A DNA stretch of 64,000 nucleotides from Candidatus Omnitrophota bacterium. GTDB taxonomy: Bacteria; Omnitrophota; Gorgyraeia; Gygaellales; Profunditerraquicolaceae. The number at the start of each line of letters is the position of its first letter. Within the stretch, counting starts at the first letter, position 1. Below the pieces are notes generated by a model. It saw nothing but the letters and a program-made list of their open reading frames with translations. It was not told the origin of the DNA and did no database searches. Shown here piece by piece: positions 2,445 through 57,894 of this stretch. Where the stretch lies: positions 6,558-70,557 of the forward strand of contig JBAZEH010000003.1 of assembly GCA_041653955.1 (NCBI GenBank), in the 5' to 3' direction. The position numbers and the translations under genes are program-made.

Positions 2445-2469
2445 TTTGAAAATAAGGAAGTTTGTGAAT

Positions 2470-2756
2470 GGGTAGGTACCCAAGTGGCCAAAGGGGGCAG
2501 ACTGTATAAAAGCAGCTTCATGCCGAAAGGCATGATGAAAAAGTAGGTGAATTCAGGGAACCCCTTGATTTAACTTAAAACCAAGGGCAATCCTGAGCCA
2601 AGCCCGCAAAAGAATACGCGGGAAGGTGCAGAGACTAAGCGCCTACCACCTGTCGGCGATGCCAAGGTGAAGAGATAGTCCAAGCCTTAAGGTAACTTAA
2701 GGGCACTTGAAATCTGCTGCGCTTGCGCTTCAGAGGTTCGAATCCTCTCCTGCCCA
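2470..2756 (+). tRNA. tRNA-Tyr (anticodon GUA) interrupted by a 204-nt group I intron in the anticodon loop; exons 2470-2505 and 2710-2756
   Basis: 5' half GGGTAGGTACCCAAGTGGCCAAAGGGGGCAGACTGT matches bacterial tRNA-Tyr up to anticodon position 35. 3' half AAATCTGC + long variable arm TGCGCTTGCGCTTC + AGAGGTTCGAATCCTCT + CCTGCCCA completes the cloverleaf (acceptor GGGTAGG/CCTGCCC). Confidence 0.85.
2506..2709 (+). mobile_element. group I self-splicing intron (IC3-like, Azoarcus/Anabaena tRNA-intron type) inserted between anticodon positions 35 and 36 of tRNA-Tyr
   Basis: 5' exon ends in U (2505) that can wobble-pair with G2512 of an internal guide GCAG (P1: ACUGU/GCAG). P2 hairpin CATGCCgaaaGGCATG. 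Core motifs CAGAGACTA (2629-2637), GAAGAGATAGTCC (2669-2681) and GAGCCAAGC (2595-2603) match the R/S and P7 elements of small tRNA group I introns. Last intron nt is G2709 (omega G). Confidence 0.8.
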
Positions 2757-2943
2757 TTTAAATTCTCCTTATTGGAGATTTGAATAGCACTTTCATCAGC
2801 GACAGCTATGCGATAAGCCGGGCAGTGAGTGAAAGTGCATACCACCAGTTTGTTCTTTGCGACAGCAAAACAGCCAGCGGTAGAGCATGTTATCGCGCAG
2901 CGCCCGGAGCTAAGAGGTGTTGTGTCGGCGTGCGCTAATTAGC

Positions 2944-3014
2944 GCGGGAGTAGTTCAGTGGTAGAACAATAGCCTTCCAAGCTATATATGGGGGTTCGAT
3001 TCCCCTCTCCCGCT
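2944..3014 (+). tRNA. tRNA-Gly (anticodon UCC)
   Basis: Acceptor GCGGGAG/CTCCCGC, D arm TAGTTCAGTGGTAGAACA, anticodon stem ATAGC/GCTAT with loop CTTCCAA, T arm GGGGGTTCGATTCCCCT. Confidence 0.85.
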
Positions 3015-3068: not shown

Positions 3069-3839
3069 ATGATAGAAAGAGAATTCCTGGAACCCGTATT
3101 TATTGATGCCTTTGACCTGGATGATGCGTGGTTCCAGTGCCTGGCGAGGATACTTGATAAAGGGCACGTTTATACCATAACCCGAGGCAGTTATGAAGGC
3201 CAGAGGCGCCTGGAGTTTGATCTTGCGGTGATCAGGGCGAAGAAACCCTCGCACCAGATCATACCGATAATACCTGAAGGCATGAGCATACCGGCCCCTA
3301 CGGATATGGATTATATACAGGGTTACCTGAGTTATCTGATGACCGGAACAAAAACGGAAACAGAAGATTACACATATGGAGAGCGCCTCGTTGACCCAAG
3401 GGTGAAGATAAAAGAGAATATTGACGGAAAGAGTATGCTTAAAGAGATGCCCCTTGAAGTCAACCAGATAGAAGAGGTGATAAATATATACAAGAAACAG
3501 GGGCATGGCACTAATCAGGCGATAATGGAGATAGGGATGCCTTCAGATATAAAATTGGACGATCCGCCGTGCCTGCGCCTTATAGATACGAGGGTGCGTT
3601 ATGGCAAGCTTCATTTTATCCTGTATTTCCGTTCCTGGGACCTGTGGGGAGGTTTTCCTTCAAACCTCGGGGGATTGCAGCTGGTAAAGCAGTATATGGC
3701 CGAAGAGATAGGAGTGGAAGACGGTGAGATGGTGGCTTTAAGCAAAGGCCTGCATCTTTATGAGTATAGCTGGGACCTGGCAAAGTTAAGGACAGGGAAA
3801 CAGGATCCCGTTTCGCTTCAGGGTAAGGGAGCAAAGTAA
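3069..3839 (+). CDS. thymidylate synthase (ThyA) family protein, divergent
   Basis: C-terminal half aligns to ThyA core: PPCL (catalytic Cys) ...GKLHFILYFRSWDLWGGFPSNLGGLQLVKQYMAEEIG vs E. coli PPCH...[35 protein letters not shown]. Confidence 0.6.
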   Translation: MIEREFLEPVFIDAFDLDDAWFQCLARILDKGHVYTITRGSYEGQRRLEFDLAVIRAKKPSHQIIPIIPEGMSIPAPTDMDYIQGYLSYLMTGTKTETEDYTYGERLVDPRVKIKENIDGKSMLKEMPLEVNQIEEVINIYKKQGHGTNQAIMEIGMPSDIKLDDPPCLRLIDTRVRYGKLHFILYFRSWDLWGGFPSNLGGLQLVKQYMAEEIGVEDGEMVALSKGLHLYEYSWDLAKLRTGKQDPVSLQGKGAK

Positions 3840-6160: not shown

Positions 6161-7456
6161 ATGAAGAAGATAAATGTGGGTTTGATCGGTTTCGGTAATA
6201 TAGGCTCGGGGGTCGTGAAGATCCTCTCCGATAGAAGAGGTTTTTTAAGCAGCAAGATAGGATTGGATATAGCTATCAAGAAAATATGCGATAAAGACCT
6301 TACCTCTAAAAGGAATGTTACCGTAGATAAAAGCCTTTTTGTAAAAGATATTAAAGAAATAATTGATGACCCGCAGATAGATATCGTAGTTGAACTGATA
6401 GGCGGCATACATCCGGCGAAGGAGTATATATCCGAGGCCCTGAATAAAGGCAAGAATATCGTTACCGCCAATAAGGCGCTTCTGGCCCAGGAGGGGCGCG
6501 CGCTTTTTGCCCTTGCGCGGGACCGCGGCAAGAGCATTCATTTTGAGGCGTCTGTCGGGGCGGGTATCCCGATCATAAAATCGCTGCGCGAAGGCCTGGT
6601 AGCTAATAAGTTTTTTAATATCTTCGGTATTGTTAACGGCACCTCCAATTTTGTCTTATCGCGGATGTCAGAGAATAATTGCAGTTTCAATGACGCGCTC
6701 TCAGAAGCCAGGGCGCAAGGGTTTGCGGAGAGGAACCCTACCTTTGATATAGAAGGCATGGATTCCGCGCACAAACTGATATTGCTTACTTACCTGTGTT
6801 TCGGGAAACTGGTGGGCATGGAAGATATATTCATAGAAGGCATATCCCGGGTTTCTTTGGCGGATATCAATTATGCCGCGGAGATGGGCTTTGAAATAAA
6901 ACTCCTGGCTATAGCGAAGAAGGATTCAGACGGGCTGGAAGTGCGCGTGCATCCGACCCTTATACCAAAACACCATCTTTTGTCTTCCGTGTCCGGGATA
7001 TCAAACGCGATATACGTATCCAGCGACCTGGCCGGAGAGCTTCTTTTTTCAGGCCCGGGAGCCGGGCAGCTATCAGCTGCGTCTGCCGTGGTATCGGACA
7101 TTGTTGACCTGACGCAGGGGTTAAAGGCGGGTATGTTCAGGCCGACACTTAATATAGTGGAGGATAAGTCCATAAAGAAGCTGCGCAGGATAAACGATAT
7201 AGAGAGCCGTTATTACATACGTTTTATGACCGTTGATAAGCCGGGGGTGTTGGCGAAGATATCCGGCGTCCTTTCTAAATTCGGAATCAGCATAGCTTCC
7301 GTTACTCAAAAGGAGAGGAAGAGGGCGCAGGTGGTGCCTATTGTTATGATCATTCACGAGGCCAGGGAGAAAAACCTGCGTTCCGCGCTGGATGCGATAG
7401 GCCGCTTGAATATCATAAAACAGGATTCAGTAGCGATAAGGATAGAAGATGTCTAA
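6161..7456 (+). CDS. hom: homoserine dehydrogenase (with C-terminal ACT domain)
   Basis: [22 protein letters not shown]... NAD-binding N-terminus, catalytic core and C-terminal ACT-like segment. Confidence 0.9.
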
Positions 7457-8549
7457 GAAAGCAAAAGCGCCGGATGCGCGGTATAACGGAGTAATTGAAA
7501 GATACAAAAGTTATCTGCCGGTTTCCCGCGGTACTCCTGTGATCACCCTGAATGAGGGGAATACTCCCTTGATACGCGCAAATTACCTTAGCCGGCTGAT
7601 CGGCAGGGATTTTGAGGTTTATCTGAAATATGAGGGCCTTAATCCGACAGGTTCTTTTAAGGACCGCGGTATGACTATGGCTATATCCAAGGCTTGTGAA
7701 GATCGTTCAAAAGCGGTGATGTGCGCTTCAACCGGGAATACTTCCGCATCTGCGGCGGCATATGCCGCGAGAGCGGGTTTAAAATGCATAGTGCTTATCC
7801 CGCGCGGAGCGATAGCCCTTGGAAAGCTTAGCCAGGCGCTTATCCATGGAGCGGTAGTGCTGGCAGTAGACGGTAACTTCGATGATGCCTTAGAATTGGT
7901 GCGTGAGATCACCTCAAATTACCCTATAACCCTGGTTAATTCTTTAAACCCTTACCGCATAGAGGGGCAGAAAACGGGAAGCTTTGAGATATGTGATGCT
8001 CTTGGTGACGCGCCCTCTTTCCAGGTAATGCCGGTCGGTAATGCCGGGAATATCACAGCTTACTGGAAGGGGTATAAGGAGTATAAAAAAGCCGGTAACT
8101 CTAAAACTTTGCCTAAGATGCTGGGTTTTCAGGCGGCTGGTTCAGCCCCTATAGTAAAAGGCCACCCGATAAAAAACCCCGACACTATCGCTACAGCCAT
8201 ACGCATCGGTAATCCTGCGAGCTGGAAGGAAGCGGAACGCGCTCGCGATGAATCCGAAGGGCTTATTGATATGGTAAAGGATTCAGAGATAGTATCTGCT
8301 TATAAATTGTTGGCGGTTAAAGAAGGGGTATTCGTTGAGCCTGCTTCAGCTGCTTCTATCGCCGGGCTTTTAAAACTGGCGAAAAAAGGATATTTCAAGA
8401 AGGCATCCGGGCGCAAAGGCATAAAAAGGATAACCTGCATCCTGACAGGGCACGGATTAAAAGACCCTGACAGGGCGATAAAGAGCATAAAACAGCCGAG
8501 GGTAGTGAAGGCGGACCTGAAGTCGGTATTGAGAGAGATAGGGTATTGA
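7449..8549 (+). CDS. thrC: threonine synthase
   Basis: PLP-fold with FKDRGMT lysine motif, [14 protein letters not shown]. Confidence 0.9.
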
Positions 8550-11978: not shown

Positions 11979-13191
11979 GGGATTGGTCGTTCAAAAATTC
12001 GGCGGTTCGTCGGTTGCAAATGTAGAACGTATCCAGGAAGTTGCACGCCGCGTAGTAAGTTACCGTAAGAAAGGTTATGACCTGGTAGTGGTGGTTTCCG
12101 CGCTTGGTGATACTACAGATGAACTGGTAGAACTCGCCGGACAGATCACCCATGAGGCATCAGAGCGCGAAATGGATATGCTCCTTTCTACGGGAGAACA
12201 GATATCCGTGGCATTGCTGGCAATGGCGATACATAAACTGGGTTTTGAGGCGATATCCTTTACTGGAGCGCAAGTCGGGATAATCACCGATACCAGCCAC
12301 ACCCGCGCGCGTATCATAAAGATAAACGCGGATAAGATAAAAGAAGAGCTAAAACTCAACAAGATAGTTATAGTCGCTGGTTTTCAGGGGGTTACGCTGA
12401 ACCATGATATTACCACTCTAGGGAGGGGAGGTTCAGACCTTACCGCTGTTGCGCTGGCCAAGGAGCTTTCGGCGCGCGAATGCGAGATCTATACCGATGT
12501 TGAGGGTATATACAGCGCAGATCCGCGCGTAGAGCCGAAGGCAAAGAAGATAAAGGCGATCACTTATGACGAGATGCTTGAGATGGCGTCCCTTGGGGCG
12601 CAGGTTATGCAGGCGCGCTCCATAGAGGTGGCCAAAAAATTCAACGTAGATATTCATGTGCGTTCCAGCTTTAACGATCAACCCGGGACGATCATTACCA
12701 AGGAGGTCAATAAAATGGAAGAGGTGGTTGTAAGCGGCATAACATTGAATAAGAATGAAGCTAAGATCACGATATGCAATGTTCCTGACCGCCCGGGTAT
12801 CGCGGCAAAAATATTCAAACAGCTGGCCGAAAAGGGGATAAGTGTTGATACGATAGTCCAGAATGTCAGCCATACGCGCCAGACAGATATATCGTTTACC
12901 GTTAATAAAGCGGATACCAATAAGACCGTGAAGCTTGCCAGGAAGATCGCCGCGAGTATCGGCTCAGGAGAGGTATTGCAGGATGAGGGAGTTGCCAGGA
13001 TCTCAATAGTAGGCGTAGGGATGAAATCGCATCCGGGCGTGGCGGCGACCATGTTTGATTCTTTAGCGCGCAATAAGATCAATATTGAAATGATCTCTAC
13101 TTCAGAGATCAGCATTTCGTGTATTATAGAAAAGAAGTTCGCCGAAAAAGCGGTCAAGGCACTGCACGCTAAATTCGGCCTGTCTAAATAG
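11971..13191 (+). CDS. lysC: aspartate kinase
   Basis: VQKFGGSSVANVERI... kinase N-terminus plus two C-terminal ACT domains. Confidence 0.9.
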   Translation: MHKGLVVQKFGGSSVANVERIQEVARRVVSYRKKGYDLVVVVSALGDTTDELVELAGQITHEASEREMDMLLSTGEQISVALLAMAIHKLGFEAISFTGAQVGIITDTSHTRARIIKINADKIKEELKLNKIVIVAGFQGVTLNHDITTLGRGGSDLTAVALAKELSARECEIYTDVEGIYSADPRVEPKAKKIKAITYDEMLEMASLGAQVMQARSIEVAKKFNVDIHVRSSFNDQPGTIITKEVNKMEEVVVSGITLNKNEAKITICNVPDRPGIAAKIFKQLAEKGISVDTIVQNVSHTRQTDISFTVNKADTNKTVKLARKIAASIGSGEVLQDEGVARISIVGVGMKSHPGVAATMFDSLARNKINIEMISTSEISISCIIEKKFAEKAVKALHAKFGLSK

Positions 13192-13248
13192 GGACACCCT
13201 TTTTGCCAATCGAGGGACACCCCTTCTGCTAAAGCTAAGGGTGTCCCC
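13191..13248 (+). repeat. palindromic intergenic repeat, family GGGACACCC-N-GGGTGTCCC (copy A: two GGGACACCC(C) half-sites plus GGGTGTCCCC)
   Basis: GGGACACCCtttttgccaatcgaGGGACACCCCttctgctaaagctaaGGGTGTCCCC; same arms and same loop sequences recur at 20374-20489 and 53568-53602. Confidence 0.8.
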
Positions 13249-18419: not shown

Positions 18420-20411
18420 GTGGAAAAATTCAGGTTGTTCTCGGATTATAAGCCTTGCGGAGACCAGCCCAAGGCGATAAAAGAATTAACTGATTCTATT
18501 AATTCGGGGAAGAGCTATCAGACCTTGCTTGGTGTGACCGGCTCAGGCAAGACTTTTACGCTGGCTAATGTCATAGAAAAGGTAAACCGCCCCACGCTGG
18601 TAATCTCTCATAATAAAACACTCGCCGCCCAGCTGTATTCGGAGTTTAGGGAGTTCTTCCCGCGTAATGCCGTAGAATATTTTGTAAGTTATTACGACTA
18701 TTACCAGCCTGAGGCATACGTGCCTTCGACTGATACCTATATAGAGAAAGACGCATCCATCAATGACAGGTTGGATCGCCTGCGGCTCTCCGCGACCACC
18801 TCGCTTATGTCCCGGCGCGATTGTCTTATCGTAGCATCCGTATCCTGCATATATAACCTCGGTTCTCCAGGAGAATACCGCGATATGCTTGTTCTTATTG
18901 AAAGGGGAGAAGTTTTATCGCGCGATGACTTGCTGCGCGGGCTCCTTAAGATACAATATGAAAGGAATGATTATGAATTTATCCGCGGCAAGATAAGGGT
19001 AAGGGGGGATGTGGTGGAGGTATTTCCTTCATACGAAGAGGCGGCCCTGCGCGTAGAGTTATCCGGAGATTTGGTTGAGAAGGTATCGCGAATAAACCCT
19101 GTTTCGGGTGAAGTTTTGGATCATCTGGATAGGATAGCTATATATCCAGCCAAGCATTTTATCTTTTCCGGGGAGAAGTTGGATGGGGCGCTTAATTCTA
19201 TAAACAGCGAATTAGAGGACAGGCTTAACTTTTTAAGGAGCAAAAATAAATTATTAGAGGCGCAGCGCCTTGAATCCCGCACTAAATATGATATGGAGAT
19301 GCTTAAGGAGATGGGCTATTGCCACGGGATAGAGAATTATTCACGCCACCTTTCGGGAAAGCCTCCGGGCTCAAGACCTTATTGTCTGATTGACTATTTT
19401 CCGAAAGACCTCCTGGTAGTGATAGATGAGTCCCACGTGACCTTACCTCAGATAAGAGGGATGTATGAAGGTGATCAAGCCAGGAAAAAAGTGCTGGTAG
19501 AGTACGGGTTCAGGTTGCCTTCATGCCTGGATAACCGCCCTTTAAGATTCGATGAATTCGGGGAGTTGGTAAAACAACAGGTATTTGTTTCTGCCACGCC
19601 GGATGAATATGAGATAAAGAAGAGTGGTGGGGTTGCTATTGAACAGATCATACGCCCTACCGGCTTGATCGATCCCGAAATAATAATTAAGCCTATCGAC
19701 GGGCAGATTGAGGATCTGATCAAAGAAGCCAGAAAGCGTTCTGCCCGCGATGAGCGTGTCCTGATTACGACCCTGACCAAAAGGCTTGCAGAAGATTTAA
19801 CTACCTATTTACAGGAGAAGGGTTTAAAGGTAAAATATTTACATTCAGAGGTTGAGACTATTGAACGCTCAAGGATCCTCAGGGAATTAAGGCGTAAGGA
19901 ATTTGATTGCCTGGTAGGGATAAACCTGTTAAGGGAGGGGCTAGATCTTCCCGAAGTTTCACTTGTAGCTATCCTGGACGCGGATAAGGAAGGTTTCTTA
20001 AGGTCGGCGACCTCGCTGATTCAGGTAGCCGGGCGCGCGGCGCGTAATATAAACGGGACCGTGATAATGTATGCCGATACGATCACGGGTTCGATGAAAA
20101 AGGCGATTGCCGAAAGCAGTAGAAGAAGAAAGAAACAGATTGAATTCAATAAGAAAAATAAGATCACCCCGCGTTCCATTGAAAAAAGCATAAAAGAGGG
20201 GATCGAAGACTTGCAGGAAGCGCAGGTATTCGTGGCAGAGCTGACCGGGCAGGATAAAGATGAGTATGAATTAAGCAGGTATATTTCGGAATTAGAATAC
20301 GATATGGAATTGGCAGCGCGGAACCTGCAGTTTGAAAAGGCAGCGGTCATCCGCGATAAAATCAAACAACTCAGGGACACCCTTCCAGCCAAAGCTAAGG
20401 GTGTCCCTTAA
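18420..20411 (+). CDS. uvrB: excinuclease ABC subunit B
   Basis: GVTGSGKTF Walker A, helicase motifs, C-terminal UVR domain; GTG start. Last codons plus stop are supplied by a GGGACACCC...GGGTGTCCC repeat. Confidence 0.95.
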
Positions 20412-20489
20412 GAGTATTTAAAGGTATTAGTGGGGACACCCTCCCGATTGGCAGAAAGGGTGTCCCTCGATTGGCAGAAAGGGTGTCCC
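20374..20489 (+). repeat. palindromic repeat cluster (copy B: two GGGACACCC-N16-GGGTGTCCC palindromes plus tandem duplication of tcgattggcagaaagggtgtccc)
   Basis: GGGACACCCttccagccaaagctaaGGGTGTCCC (20374-20407) overlapping the uvrB stop. GGGACACCCtcccgattggcagaaaGGGTGTCCCtcgattggcagaaaGGGTGTCCC (20433-20489) abutting the coaX ATG. Confidence 0.8.
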
Positions 20490-20490
20490 T

Positions 20491-21234
20491 ATGATGGTGG
20501 TTGATGTGGGGAATACGAATATAAGTTTGGGTGTGTTCAGGGGGAAACTCCTGATCAAGAGGCTTACTATTCCTACCGGAACAGGGGATTACAGGGGCCG
20601 CTTTAAGCGGATTATCGGCCGCAGTAAGGTTGATGATATAGTGATCTGCAGTGTGGTCCCTTCAGCCGAGAATGCCATAGTAAAACAGCTTATCTCTCTT
20701 ACCGGTAAACGCCCCTATATTATAGGTAAGCAGATAAAGGTCCCTATAAGAAACCTTTACCGTAAGCCGCGCCAGGTTGGACAGGATAGGCTGGTTAATG
20801 CTTATGCCGGGGTGAGATTACACGGGGCCCCACTGGTCATAGTTGATTTTGGTACTACCGTTACCTTTGATGTGGTTTCCGCCAGAAAAGAGTATTTGGG
20901 AGGTATGATCATCCCGGGTTTAGGGATCTCATTAGAATCGCTTAATCAGCGCACAGCGCTCTTGCCGAAAATCAAGTTAGAAGAACCGGCTGAGTTTATC
21001 GGGCGCGATACCAGGAATAGCATGTTAAGCGGAATAGTATATGGTTTTGCCGCGCTTACCGATAATATGGTTACAATGATAAGAAAGAAGATAGGCAGCA
21101 AGGCTAAGGTGGTCGCTACGGGGGGGAGTGCCCGTATGATCTTTAAATATTGCCGCAAGATAGATAAGATAGATGAGGACCTGACGATCAAGGGGCTGAA
21201 ACTTATCATGGATGATGCGGGCCATGATAATTAG
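20491..21234 (+). CDS. coaX: type III pantothenate kinase
   Basis: MMVVDVGNTNISLGVF... ASKHA fold N-terminus typical of CoaX. Confidence 0.85.
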   Translation: MMVVDVGNTNISLGVFRGKLLIKRLTIPTGTGDYRGRFKRIIGRSKVDDIVICSVVPSAENAIVKQLISLTGKRPYIIGKQIKVPIRNLYRKPRQVGQDRLVNAYAGVRLHGAPLVIVDFGTTVTFDVVSARKEYLGGMIIPGLGISLESLNQRTALLPKIKLEEPAEFIGRDTRNSMLSGIVYGFAALTDNMVTMIRKKIGSKAKVVATGGSARMIFKYCRKIDKIDEDLTIKGLKLIMDDAGHDN

Positions 21235-21266: not shown

Positions 21267-21294
21267 TTGACAAAATTTTTTTTTATTTTATAAT
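21267..21294 (+). promoter_or_regulatory. sigma-70 type promoter for groES-groEL
   Basis: TTGACA (21267-21272) - 16 nt - TATAAT (21289-21294). Confidence 0.6.
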
Positions 21295-21320
21295 TAGCAC
21301 TCTGAAAAGAGGAGTGCTAA
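21294..21320 (+). promoter_or_regulatory. CIRCE operator (HrcA binding inverted repeat)
   Basis: TTAGCACTC-tgaaaagag-GAGTGCTAA is a perfect match to the CIRCE consensus TTAGCACTC-N9-GAGTGCTAA; overlaps the -10 of the groES promoter. Confidence 0.9.
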
Positions 21321-21443
21321 AATAACCTGTTTAATAAAACATCCTTCTATAGTTCTTAATATGGAAGGGTGCAAATTCGCACTTATAACTTACCCATGCT
21401 GTCGCATCCGTAAGTTATGTGCTCATTTAAGGAGGTGTAACAG

Positions 21444-23514: not shown

Positions 23515-23550
23515 AAAAGGGGCGAAGGTAAAACTTCGCCCCTTTTCTTT
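23515..23550. terminator. strong (potentially bidirectional) rho-independent terminator after groEL
   Basis: AAAAGGGGCGAAG-gtaaaa-CTTCGCCCCTTTT followed by CTTTT; the reverse complement is also followed by a U-rich tract. Confidence 0.8.
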
Positions 23551-23554
23551 TAGC

Positions 23555-23700
23555 GGACTGCCTTGGCTTGCTTACGCAGTACCGCTCGGATTTCCCCACC
23601 GAGAAAATCCTCGCTTGGAGTTTCTGCTCGTTCTCACAGACAGGTATTAACGGGTGGACCCTGGCCGCTCGCATAAACTACATGCTGCCTAAAGCAAGCC
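23555..23700. ncRNA. candidate structured small RNA (possibly 6S-like); strand and identity unresolved
   Basis: GGACTGCCTTGGCTTGCTT (23555-23573) pairs with AAGCAAGCCAAACCAGTCC (23682-23700), 17 of 19 bp around a 2x2 internal loop. They enclose ~108 nt with several local hairpins (CTCGG...CCGAG, GGGTggACCC). No convincing ORF; sits between the groEL terminator and the guaB promoter. Confidence 0.35.
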
Positions 23701-23883
23701 AAACCAGTCCGCTGAAATACTTAGTGCGCGTATTGGCGACACTTTCGCGGAGGGTTTGTGGGCGTGCATCAGAAATTGTTCGGTAAAAGTATGCAAGGAT
23801 TTACGACGAGCGAGTGCAGGAATTGACATTTGTCAGCGAACAATCTCAGCACGCGAGCAAAGCCCGCAGTGAAAACATTGCCA

Positions 23884-23912
23884 AAAATAATTATTGACAA
23901 GGAGCGCGGATT
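23884..23912 (+). promoter_or_regulatory. sigma-70 type promoter for guaB-guaA
   Basis: TTGACA (23884-23889) - 17 nt - TAAAAT (23907-23912), preceded by an A/T-rich tract. Confidence 0.55.
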
Positions 23913-24011
23913 GGGGTAAAATTTTACACAACCTTTCTTAAAACAACCCCACAAAGAGGTTAAATATTCTTAACACATTGAAAAACAATAACTTATACGA
24001 GGAGAATTAAC

Positions 24012-52262: not shown

Positions 52263-53591
52263 ATGAGTATCAATATTATGGATAAGATAGTCGCCCTCTG
52301 CAAACGCAGGGGCTTTGTATTCCAGTCCTCGGATATATACGGCGGTTTAAGCAATACGTGGGATTACGGCCCGTATGGCGTGGAGCTGAAGAATAATGTC
52401 AAGCGCGCCTGGTGGAGGTCCGTAGTTTATGAGCGTAATGATATCCTGGGTATGGATGCCGCGATATTAATGCATCCTAAGGTATGGCAGGCATCCGGGC
52501 ACGTGGATAATTTTTATGACTTAAAGAGTGACTGTAAATCCTGCAAGAAACGTTTCAAGGCGGCTGACCTGAAAGACCCCAAAAAGTGCCCTGAATGTAA
52601 GGGTGATCTGACAGAGGCGCGCCCATTTAACCTGATGTTCAAGACGCACCAGGGGCCCGTAGAAGATGAAGGGAACTTGCTTTATTTAAGGCCCGAGACA
52701 GCGCAGGGTATCTTCGTGAATTTCTCGAATATCCTTGATTCCCGCCATCCCAAACTTCCCTTTGGCCTGGCGCAGATAGGCAAGGCATTTCGCAATGAAA
52801 TTACCCCGGGGAATTTTACTTTCCGCACGCGCGAGTTTGAGCAGATGGAGATAGAATATTTTGTCAGGCCCGATGAGGCGGATAAAAAGCTGGAAGAGTG
52901 GATTGATTACCGTTTCAGCTGGTATCCGGCTTTAGGGATGAAGAAAGAGAATTTGAGGAAGCGCCCGCACGCTAAAGATGAACTCGCGCATTACGCCAGG
53001 GCGTGCACCGATATAGAATATAATTTTCCTTTCGGGTGGTCGGAACTTGAGGGTATCGCCAACAGGACTGATTTTGACCTGAAACAGCACGCGCAAACCA
53101 GCGGAAAGGACCTGCAATATTTTGACGACGCGGCAAAGACTAAATTTTACCCGTATATCATAGAGCCGTCAGGCGGGGTGGATAGGGCGGTATTGGCGTT
53201 CCTGACTGATGCTTATCATGAAGAAAAGGTCAAAGAAGATACGCGCGTTGTACTTAAGCTCCATAAGGATCTTGCTCCGGTAAAAGTGGCGGTGTTGCCG
53301 CTTTTAAAGAACCGCCCGGAGATAGTTGAACTGGCAAAGAAGCTGGCACAGGGTTTGAAAAAGAGCATTGTCACGGTATATGATGATACCGCGGCTATCG
53401 GCAAGCTTTACCGCAGGCAGGATGAAGTCGGAACGCTCTATTGCGTTACCGTGGATGTGCAGTCATTGGAAGACAAACAGGTAACTGTCCGGGACAGGGA
53501 TACAATGAAGCAGGACAGAATAGGGATAGATAATTTAAAAGGTTATCTTACAGAAAAACTTAACGAAGGGGACACCCTCCCGATTGGCTGA
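52263..53591 (+). CDS. glyQS: glycine--tRNA ligase (dimeric alpha2 type)
   Basis: Class II motifs, insertion with zinc-ribbon-like CKSCKKRF...CPECKG, C-terminal anticodon-binding domain; last codons and stop lie in a GGGACACCC repeat. Confidence 0.9.
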   Translation: MSINIMDKIVALCKRRGFVFQSSDIYGGLSNTWDYGPYGVELKNNVKRAWWRSVVYERNDILGMDAAILMHPKVWQASGHVDNFYDLKSDCKSCKKRFKAADLKDPKKCPECKGDLTEARPFNLMFKTHQGPVEDEGNLLYLRPETAQGIFVNFSNILDSRHPKLPFGLAQIGKAFRNEITPGNFTFRTREFEQMEIEYFVRPDEADKKLEEWIDYRFSWYPALGMKKENLRKRPHAKDELAHYARACTDIEYNFPFGWSELEGIANRTDFDLKQHAQTSGKDLQYFDDAAKTKFYPYIIEPSGGVDRAVLAFLTDAYHEEKVKEDTRVVLKLHKDLAPVKVAVLPLLKNRPEIVELAKKLAQGLKKSIVTVYDDTAAIGKLYRRQDEVGTLYCVTVDVQSLEDKQVTVRDRDTMKQDRIGIDNLKGYLTEKLNEGDTLPIG

Positions 53592-53602
53592 AGGGGTGTC
53601 CC
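53568..53602 (+). repeat. palindromic repeat copy C: GGGACACCC-N16-GGGTGTCCC
   Basis: GGGACACCCtcccgattggctgaagGGGTGTCCC; loop nearly identical to the 20433-20466 copy. Confidence 0.8.
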
Positions 53603-57840: not shown

Positions 57841-57894
57841 AGGGACTGTCCCCTGGGCGTTCTTTGGATTAGCTCTCTACGGGGACTGTCCCTT
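57841..57894 (+). repeat. two copies of the short palindrome GGGACtGTCCC flanking a 30-nt spacer, immediately after tRNA-Arg
   Basis: GGGACTGTCCCctgggcgttctttggattagctctctacgGGGACTGTCCC; shares the GGGAC/GTCCC half-site with the GGGACACCC family. Confidence 0.6.

Follow-up and report, generated by a model that had tools for sequence, protein, structure and literature searches.

The palindromic repeats at gene ends in a 64,000-nt stretch of a Candidatus Omnitrophota genome (assembly GCA_041653955.1, contig JBAZEH010000003.1, positions 6,558 to 70,557; hereafter the window) are very probably repetitive extragenic palindromic (REP) elements. They would belong to a system, native to a large clade of this phylum, of REP doublets forming hairpins (REPINs) and a REP-associated tyrosine transposase (RAYT). 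REP/REPIN-RAYT systems are a known kind of element, studied so far almost exclusively in Proteobacteria; searches of the literature on the motif and on palindromic or extragenic repeats of Omnitrophota yielded no description of such a system in this phylum. An earlier note on the window had described a family with two alternative loops at the ends of lysC, uvrB/coaX and glyQS, resembling REPs or miniature inverted-repeat transposable elements (MITEs). The sequences read as described there, and the placement at gene 3' ends is borne out; the identity is here narrowed to a REP/REPIN family with a cognate RAYT.

The 9-mer GGGACACCC/GGGTGTCCC occurs exactly 10 times in the window (at 13191, 13214, 13239(-), 20374, 20399(-), 20433, 20458(-), 20481(-), 53569 and 53594(-)), against 0.31 +/- 0.56 expected and a maximum of 3 in dinucleotide-preserving shuffles. 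All 10 copies are confined to three gene junctions, lysC/cimA, uvrB/coaX and glyQS/ppdK, with none in gene bodies; there are no solitary exact copies, and one-mismatch copies elsewhere in the window stay at chance level. In size and placement the elements are those of REPs: imperfect palindromes of 34 nt, repeated above chance, and extragenic or at the extreme ends of genes. They fold well above shuffled controls on the sense strand (z = -2.7 to -5.8). At the repeats no Rfam family reaches its gathering score, and a permissive search returned only hairpin look-alikes far below threshold. The six flanking genes were confirmed with NCBIfam, whose profiles end before the predicted C-termini of UvrB and of glycyl-tRNA synthetase (GlyRS, the product of glyQS), by about 10 and by 13 residues, respectively. 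A look-up of the exact coaX product gave no match, probably owing to a differently called start codon.

Each REP unit is a hairpin with an invariant GGGAC...GTCCC foot, four to six further covarying stem pairs and a conserved loop of 12-16 nt. The loop is of type A, TTYCWGCCAAAGCTAA (..GCCAAAGCTAA), or of type B, TCCCGATTGGCAGAAA; the reverse complement of B, TTTCTGCCAATCGGGA, differs consistently from A at six loop positions. A logo of the flanks of 56 hairpin copies from many genomes (33 A, 23 B) gives A at -1 in 27 of 33 and C at +1 in 23 of 33 for the A form, and G at -1 in 17 of 23 and T at +1 in 20 of 23 for the B form. B is A turned round, with these flanking bases included.

The units combine into two recurrent composites, the A-spacer-B doublet and a three-arm form containing one repeat of a 23-nt unit (arm plus half loop), whose spacings of 23 and 25 nt recur in many genomes. 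Doublets or three-arm forms were found in the window and in L004, L018, L024, L045, L047, L076, L083, L103, L199, L208, L209, L211 and L212, where L numbers label the compared genome loci (and P numbers, below, the compared proteins); the three-arm form of the lysC/cimA junction recurs in L047 (four times), L045 and L213. The alternating orientation within clusters, with short linkers, is the mosaic arrangement of REPs and bacterial interspersed mosaic elements (BIMEs). At 20467-20489, read in the earlier note as part of a tandem duplication, an extra arm is indeed present, but as an instance of this recurrent three-arm form and not as a one-off duplication. The full composite of A, 25-nt spacer, B and extra arm, about 117 nt, is seen in the window, at uvrB/coaX in L199 and at an apbE junction in L211 (A-to-B spacers of 24-25 nt in the latter two); the two window genes corresponding to the apbE junction simply overlap. 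In the L208 and L212 doublets A's left arm complements the right arm of B without a mismatch, a better fit than that between the two arms within either hairpin, and the right arm of A pairs with the left arm of B perfectly in L208 and with one mismatch in L212. The outer arms of the window doublet match at 17 of 19 positions. Doublets with such cross-complementary arms are the long hairpins of the REPIN type, and inverted doublets of the kind that marks REPIN-RAYT systems.

Pairing in the stems was assessed on 25 hairpins that had not been selected through the pattern. Overall, 93.8% of the stem cells are paired, the first five pairs are invariant, and pairs 8, 9 and 10 alternate between C-G and U-A, in 8-10 sequences each; the observed covariation score was reached by 0 of 500 shuffles. 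Among the stem mismatches, several are G-U pairs when read on the sense strand. Inner stems differ by lineage, with GGGACACCC(T) in the window, GGGACGGTT in one copy of L209, and GGGACACTTCT/AGAAGTGTCCC in each of the seven hairpins of the GGGAC type from the L199/L211 genome.

A transposase gene of the expected kind is bracketed by members of the family. The initial lead came from tblastn with approximate sequences of E. coli YafM and the IS200 TnpA; it gave a weak match in L107 (E = 0.19), which was then independently verified. The L107 open reading frame (ORF) scores 81 bits against the NCBIfam model NF047646 'REP-associated tyrosine transposase' (cutoff 80; E = 7.5e-23), 2.3e-20 as E value against Pfam Y1_Tnp, and only 29.6 bits against the IS200 model; its homologues P0243 and P0284 reach 84.3 and 84.2 bits on NF047646. 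In the protein database 804 homologues were found at E <= 1e-10, and all those named by taxon belong to Omnitrophota, two being named only 'bacterium'. Across 44 homologues neither of the two HUH histidines varies, nor does the catalytic Tyr. The nearest solved relative by profile is 4ER8, the E. coli RAYT TnpA-REP bound to its REP hairpin (E = 3.4e-7); a single-sequence phmmer search of the PDB gave no match, and the profile search was needed to reach it. An AlphaFold model of the Omnitrophota RAYT (predicted local distance difference test score, pLDDT, 88) superimposes on 4ER8 over its full length with a template modelling score (TM) of 0.75, compared with 0.48-0.57 for TnpA structures of the IS200/IS605 type.

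The L107 gene is flanked by family repeats at 2910-2943 and 3519-3575. In all four RAYT loci examined (L107, L213, L214 and L215) one REP stands 75-85 nt upstream and a B REP just downstream; the upstream REP is of the A type in L213, L214 and L215 and carries an inverted B-type loop in L107. The downstream B REP bears an extra 23-nt arm in L213 and L215, an architecture identical to that of window positions 20433..20489. Given this A..B order of the RAYT flanks, the window doublet at 20374-20489 corresponds to a pair of RAYT flanks without the gene, and REPIN doublets have been proposed to be the flanks of an ancestral element without its gene (PMC3116915). The order hppA-RAYT-ECF sigma (extracytoplasmic function sigma factor) is syntenic in three species, with one RAYT copy per 20-kb locus. 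This synteny would fit vertical inheritance of a gene with a set place in the chromosome rather than the behaviour of an active insertion sequence; in Pseudomonas, RAYTs likewise keep the same chromosomal position across species (PMC5581495).

The hairpins are widespread. In a pattern scan with one genome per species, 34-nt A/B hairpins were found in at least 18 species-representative assemblies besides the window. Nearly all of these assemblies are labelled Omnitrophota or Omnitrophica; two are labelled Planctomycetales and one Firestonebacteria (binning as recorded). As a control, the 9-mer was counted in 942 kb of uvrB loci, nearly all non-Omnitrophota, and was met 4 times, no more than chance predicts. 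These loci are metagenome matches to UvrB, among those listed mostly from distant bacteria at 55-61% identity, with L119-L122 possibly Omnitrophota. The scan of viral contigs gave three matches, all unrelated.

Among the loci that carry the hairpins, L004, L024, L026, L036 and L048 come from 'Planctomycetales' metagenome-assembled genomes (MAGs) and L083 from a 'Firestonebacteria' MAG; either these bins are mislabelled or contaminated, or the family extends beyond Omnitrophota. Distant Omnitrophota, with UvrB 73-74% identical, have 51-nt hairpins after groEL (L119:15360-15440, L120:15629-15679) with stems of 18-20 bp that start GGGAC(G/A)C; the two genomes differ in one compensatory change from A-T to G-C. 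L119 has an extra arm 23 nt upstream of its hairpin. These may form a REP class related to the present one.

Conservation of the gene order cstA-lysC-cimA-valS-nadC-uvrB-coaX-groES/EL-guaB allows the junctions to be compared across species. At lysC/cimA an element is present in the window, L199, L200/L201, L208 and L209, inverted between the window and L200, and the junction is empty in L202 and L210. The uvrB end and the uvrB/coaX gap hold A and B hairpins in the window, L199, L200, L208 and L209; the uvrB end has a decayed A hairpin in L202 and, in L210, an A hairpin whose loop contains another, unrelated palindrome. At glyQS/ppdK the window carries a B hairpin; the corresponding site is filled by a degenerate B of the three-arm form in the sister genome (L211) and by a doublet of A and B in L212.

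Two other repeats were seen in these regions. The palindrome nested in the A-type loop at the L210 uvrB end, its one such nesting, belongs to a separate family, GCCTGCCTGCCGGCAGGCAGG (L210:11955-12010, L059:2330-2360, L199:1878 and L211:8520), which occurs in other Omnitrophota but not in the window and gives several UvrB orthologues a 'PACRQAG' tail. Paired GGGACAGTCCC 11-mers, 16 nt apart, stand within the coding sequence of valS at positions conserved in two species (Table 1); they may stem from a conserved peptide or be akin to the REP foot.

Table 1 Repeat elements and associated features. Positions are those of the window unless a locus label is given.
Feature	Position	Strand	Remark
Three-arm REP cluster, lysC/cimA junction	13191..13247	+	arm, 14 nt, arm, 16 nt, inverted arm
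First arm GGGACACCC of this cluster	13191-13199	+	with its first G it completes the lysC stop TAG
14-nt half loop tttttgccaatcga, then A-type 34-nt hairpin, of this cluster	hairpin 13214-13247	+	
A-type REP hairpin GGGACACCCTT ccagccaaagct AAGGGTGTCCC, inside uvrB 3' end	20374..20407	+	encodes the last 12 UvrB residues
AT-rich 25-nt spacer between A and B hairpins	20408..20432	+	contains the uvrB stop
uvrB stop TAA	20409-20411	+	directly after the A-type hairpin
B-type REP hairpin, uvrB/coaX gap	20433-20466	+	
Extra 23-nt unit, tcgattggcagaaa + GGGTGTCCC	20467-20489	+	one base short of the coaX ATG at 20491
B-type REP hairpin overlapping glyQS 3' end	53569..53602	+	encodes GDTLPIG; stop TGA 53589-53591 in the loop
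GGGACTGTCCC 11-mer pair, 40 nt apart, after tRNA-Arg	57842-57852 and 57882-57892	+	
RAYT ORF in L107	L107:2960-3445	-	161 aa; NHVHLII and YIELNP motifs
GGGACAGTCCC pairs in valS	L200:5869-5895, 6589-6615; L208:6267-6293, 7437-7463		

The elements reach into the ends of genes. In lysC and several other genes the stop codon consists of the TA before the element and the element's first G (TA/GGGAC read as TAG, the slash marking the border), and this flush position accounts for short hairpin-encoded C-terminal tails on UvrB and GlyRS. The usual C-terminus among UvrB orthologues is ...IKELKGAFSH. Tails translated from the hairpin, in all three frames, are found in at least about 30 of the 120 closest orthologues and fall into the window's 12-residue tail with its variants, GTP...RVSP, GHPSDW and GRF...RTVP; one orthologue (P0067) reads through both the A and the B hairpin. 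The junction between UvrB and hairpin lies at three or more different positions, and the hairpin-tailed proteins are scattered in a neighbour-joining tree, which at 77-86% identity is poorly resolved and does not allow the insertion to be dated. The several frames and junction positions, together with the scatter, indicate that the uvrB end was colonised or remodelled repeatedly. Judging from the sequences, such tails are tolerated after the UVR domain.

The glyQS end appears to have a different history. The ending ...EKLNEGDTLPIG is restricted, among GlyRS orthologues, to the window's own organism, and most other orthologues end near ...KLN/KLS. Where the window reads AAC GAA G/GGGAC, the 92% identical sister L211 reads AAC TAA G/GGGAC, with the element just after the stop. 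The event was most likely a base substitution, probably TAA to GAA in view of the KLN/KLS endings, and not an insertion into the gene; with this difference in the stop codon, translation runs into a pre-existing hairpin as far as the TGA in its loop. The earlier note had proposed that the repeat donates the final codons and the stop of both genes, and this holds for the uvrB tails as for the glyQS TGA. Its further suggestion, that insertions remodelled the gene ends, stands for uvrB and gives way at glyQS to a substitution beside an element already downstream. The repeats explain odd C-terminal extensions in MAG annotations of UvrB, GlyRS and ApbE.

A related pair of 11-mers, GGGACTGTCCC, had also been noted after tRNA-Arg. 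It is present, beginning one base and ending two bases inside the interval first given for it, and its region folds at -28.2 kcal/mol (z = -4.4). Each 11-mer equals the foot of the REP hairpin minus 24 inner bases. Pairs with a period of 40-42 nt and A...C / G...T flanks also occur in L208 (in the lysC/cimA slot), L026 and L045, and the motif yields 'GTVL' tails on some GlyRS and UvrB orthologues. After tRNA-Arg the sister genome has a 34-nt hairpin with a B-type loop and a quite different stem, GCACCTGGTGC. The GGGACTGTCCC pair is either a minimal REPIN subfamily or a regular product of collapse or excision.

The family observed here, with its architecture, covariation, occupied orthologous sites, repeat-flanked RAYT genes and hairpin-derived tails, suggests the following course of events, in which we infer the catalysis by the RAYT, the mobility of the repeats and their effect on mRNA by analogy. 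As E. coli TnpA-REP and the IS200/IS605 enzymes do, the Y1 HUH RAYT would recognise the folded hairpin on single-stranded DNA and cut and rejoin beside it. By the same analogy, its action may spread and replace copies in the short stretches that separate a stop codon from the ribosome-binding site that follows. The A-spacer-B doublets, often with the 23-nt arm, would then be REPIN-like composites, RAYT flanks from which the gene has been removed. With elements lying flush with stop codons, small changes would let translation enter the hairpins. It is plausible that the conserved loop is a protein-binding site, as the earlier note had suggested, and the RAYT is the obvious candidate to bind it. 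One REP sequence (GGGAC foot with the A and B loops) and its RAYT may have been passed on jointly throughout a large Omnitrophota clade, and the system might also be domesticated, with RAYT-maintained hairpins serving the host as operon punctuation for mRNA stability or processing rather than being merely tolerated selfish repeats. That the REP has barely changed while the RAYTs diverged to about 55% identity, that the same slots are occupied and that tails arose repeatedly on essential proteins are the grounds for considering domestication, which we nevertheless regard as doubtful.

Several observations weigh against a REPIN-RAYT system. No RAYT lies within the 64-kb window. The RAYT homologue P0343 (MFA5355888.1) very likely belongs to the same MAG by accession adjacency, standing 157 accession numbers before MFA5356045.1, to which the UvrB of the window is 100% identical, and its 65.2 bits against NF047646 are below the 80-bit cutoff. 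Hairpins are only modestly frequent, with about one per 6-16 kb in loci that were picked without regard to the repeat. The covariation comes essentially from two stem subfamilies and thus few independent events. No target-site duplication or excision junction is definable from the filled and empty sites, whose flanks are too diverged. The GTAG tetranucleotide found 5' of the hairpin in the enterobacterial type (RAYT Group 2) is absent, A (27/33) or G preceding GGGAC instead, so the REP class differs from that of E. coli. Finally, about 27 of the 35 hairpins with A/B loops are oriented in the sense of the flanking genes, which could also indicate a role at the RNA level.

This last point leads to the rival that survives best, in which the hairpins are mainly host-selected RNA signals between cistrons (a 3' stabiliser, a processing site or a factor-dependent terminator), a protein reads the loop, and the transposase is secondary. 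Such a role is compatible with the REP-RAYT reading; as the main reason for the existence of the family we consider it improbable. Besides the sense orientation, it draws on the position of the elements, exactly between the stop codon and the next ribosome-binding site of co-directional genes, on the occupancy of the same junctions across species, on the covarying stems with their sense-strand G-U mismatches, and on the stabilisation of upstream mRNA by enterobacterial REPs. An effect on mRNA such as 3'-end protection is accordingly plausible by analogy with those REPs. The orientation is not fixed, however: the lysC/cimA element has opposite orientations in the window and in L200, and in L018 the doublet runs antisense. 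The lysC/cimA junction is empty in the relatives L202 and L210, and the A..B bracket around the RAYT genes is left unexplained. Nor do the hairpins look like intrinsic terminators, as they have loops of 12-16 nt and no U tract (3' flanks caagag, ttaagag, tatgatg and taagaat), and canonical terminators are used elsewhere in the genome. A terminator scan flagged none of the hairpins. Every plausible gene in the window lies on the + strand, so that tests of orientation cannot separate the direction of transcription from that of replication.

It is much less probable still that the repeats are MITEs of an IS630/Tc1-like DDE transposon, one with duplication of a TA target, and that the GGGACACCC arms are its terminal inverted repeats. 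Two features would be expected of such elements: about 40% of copies have TA next to the outermost arm, before or after it, and the A-B doublet has outer arms (about 19 bp) matching at 17 of 19 positions. The TA is not universal, however, and, since TA plus the first G of the arm makes a TAG stop, it is explicable by selection at gene ends. The flanks are asymmetric (A...C vs G...T) and not duplicated, and the 34-nt unit is shorter than the DDE MITEs that are generally known. No DDE transposase was met beside any copy, the profile screen having covered ten ORFs only, those around four hairpin copies in L047, in which Pfam found no transposase; the only transposase bracketed by the repeats is the Y1 RAYT, in four genomes. 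A DNA-uptake signal accumulating as inverted pairs after genes, as in Neisseria and Haemophilus, is hardly credible: a short cross-species motif, often in inverted pairs at gene ends and with lineage-specific 'dialects' that change on both arms together, would suit it, but all 10 exact 9-mers sit in three structured clusters with no isolated copies, none in gene bodies and one-mismatch copies at chance, conservation extends to the loops and to the overall 34-nt length, and the elements flank RAYT genes.

Two further identities were rejected. Integron attC sites also have a conserved foot and a variable interior, but the neighbours here are syntenic housekeeping genes and not cassettes; a sigma-54 promoter or an integration host factor (IHF) site in the loop does not fit the consensus.

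Other signals were recorded in the window. Upstream of groES (21267-21324) a perfect promoter of the sigma-70 type (TTGACA, 16 nt, TATAAT) is followed by an inverted repeat, TTAGCACTC-N9-GAGTGCTAA, similar to CIRCE (controlling inverted repeat of chaperone expression), which looks like heat-shock control of the HrcA type. The canonical intrinsic terminator after groEL, at 23517-23552, reads GGGGCGAAG gtaaaa CTTCGCCCC TTTTCTTTT and was missed by the terminator scan, probably since its stem extends into the T run; between it and the guaB promoter (23894-23922) lie about 340 nt without a long ORF (23553-23893). A group I intron (Rfam RF00028, 99.7 bits, 2495-2702), about 204 nt long, splits the anticodon loop of a tRNA-Tyr(GTA) gene at 2469-2757 (+), between tRNA-Thr (2372-2444) and tRNA-Gly (2944-3014); this gene was found by ARAGORN with the intron option and missed by the default tRNA scan.

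The REPIN-RAYT system proposed here offers a clear-cut example from a phylum of very small, uncultured cells, one in which the gene-less doublet can be seen to share its structure with the pair of RAYT flanks and the same junctions can be traced across many species. The contrast between a conserved foot and loop and a covarying inner stem points to the parts that a protein likely reads, and the hairpins can be used as a recognisable sequence marker for this Omnitrophota clade.

Among known systems, Correia elements, MITEs of Neisseria, are similar in being small repeats, bordered by TA, that insert where genes meet, are transcribed along with them and can change their ends. They are 100-155 bp long, have terminal inverted repeats of 26 bp, truly duplicate TA and involve no RAYT, and the Omnitrophota repeats are unrelated to them in sequence. 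IS200/IS605 elements and their gene-less derivatives, the palindrome-associated transposable elements (PATEs), share the Y1 HUH transposase, the subterminal hairpins in single-stranded DNA and the existence of hairpin-only derivatives. The Omnitrophota protein differs from them in its scores on the two models (81 bits on RAYT, 29.6 on IS200), in its weaker fold match (TM 0.52-0.57 for the TnpA of IS608/ISDra2) and in keeping one syntenic slot in three species rather than behaving as a multicopy insertion sequence.

The resemblance to the REP/BIME elements of E. coli and their TnpA-REP (YafM; PDB 4ER8) is closer. Both consist of short imperfect intergenic palindromes in two variants of alternating orientation that form mosaics, as the Y and Z REPs do, with a cognate Y1 HUH transposase gene flanked by repeats, and 4ER8 is the closest solved relative by profile as well as by fold. 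The REP sequences, on the other hand, are unrelated, the Omnitrophota hairpins having the invariant GGGAC/GTCCC foot with its unpaired A...C flank and a large conserved loop; the RAYT is only 18% identical to 4ER8, and the host is an uncultured candidate phylum. From the REPIN-RAYT systems of Pseudomonas (Bertels and Rainey 2011, PMC3116915; Bertels et al. 2017, PMC5581495) the present one differs in its short spacer (5-25 nt), in the six loop positions that distinguish its two REPs, in the frequency of three-arm forms, in a REP sequence kept across RAYTs that are only 55-70% identical, and in a density, as estimated from sampled loci, that is lower than the hundreds of copies reported there. 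It shares with them the inverted doublets forming a long hairpin with compensatory changes, the RAYT at the same chromosomal position across species, and doublets that can be read as the flanks of an element without its gene.

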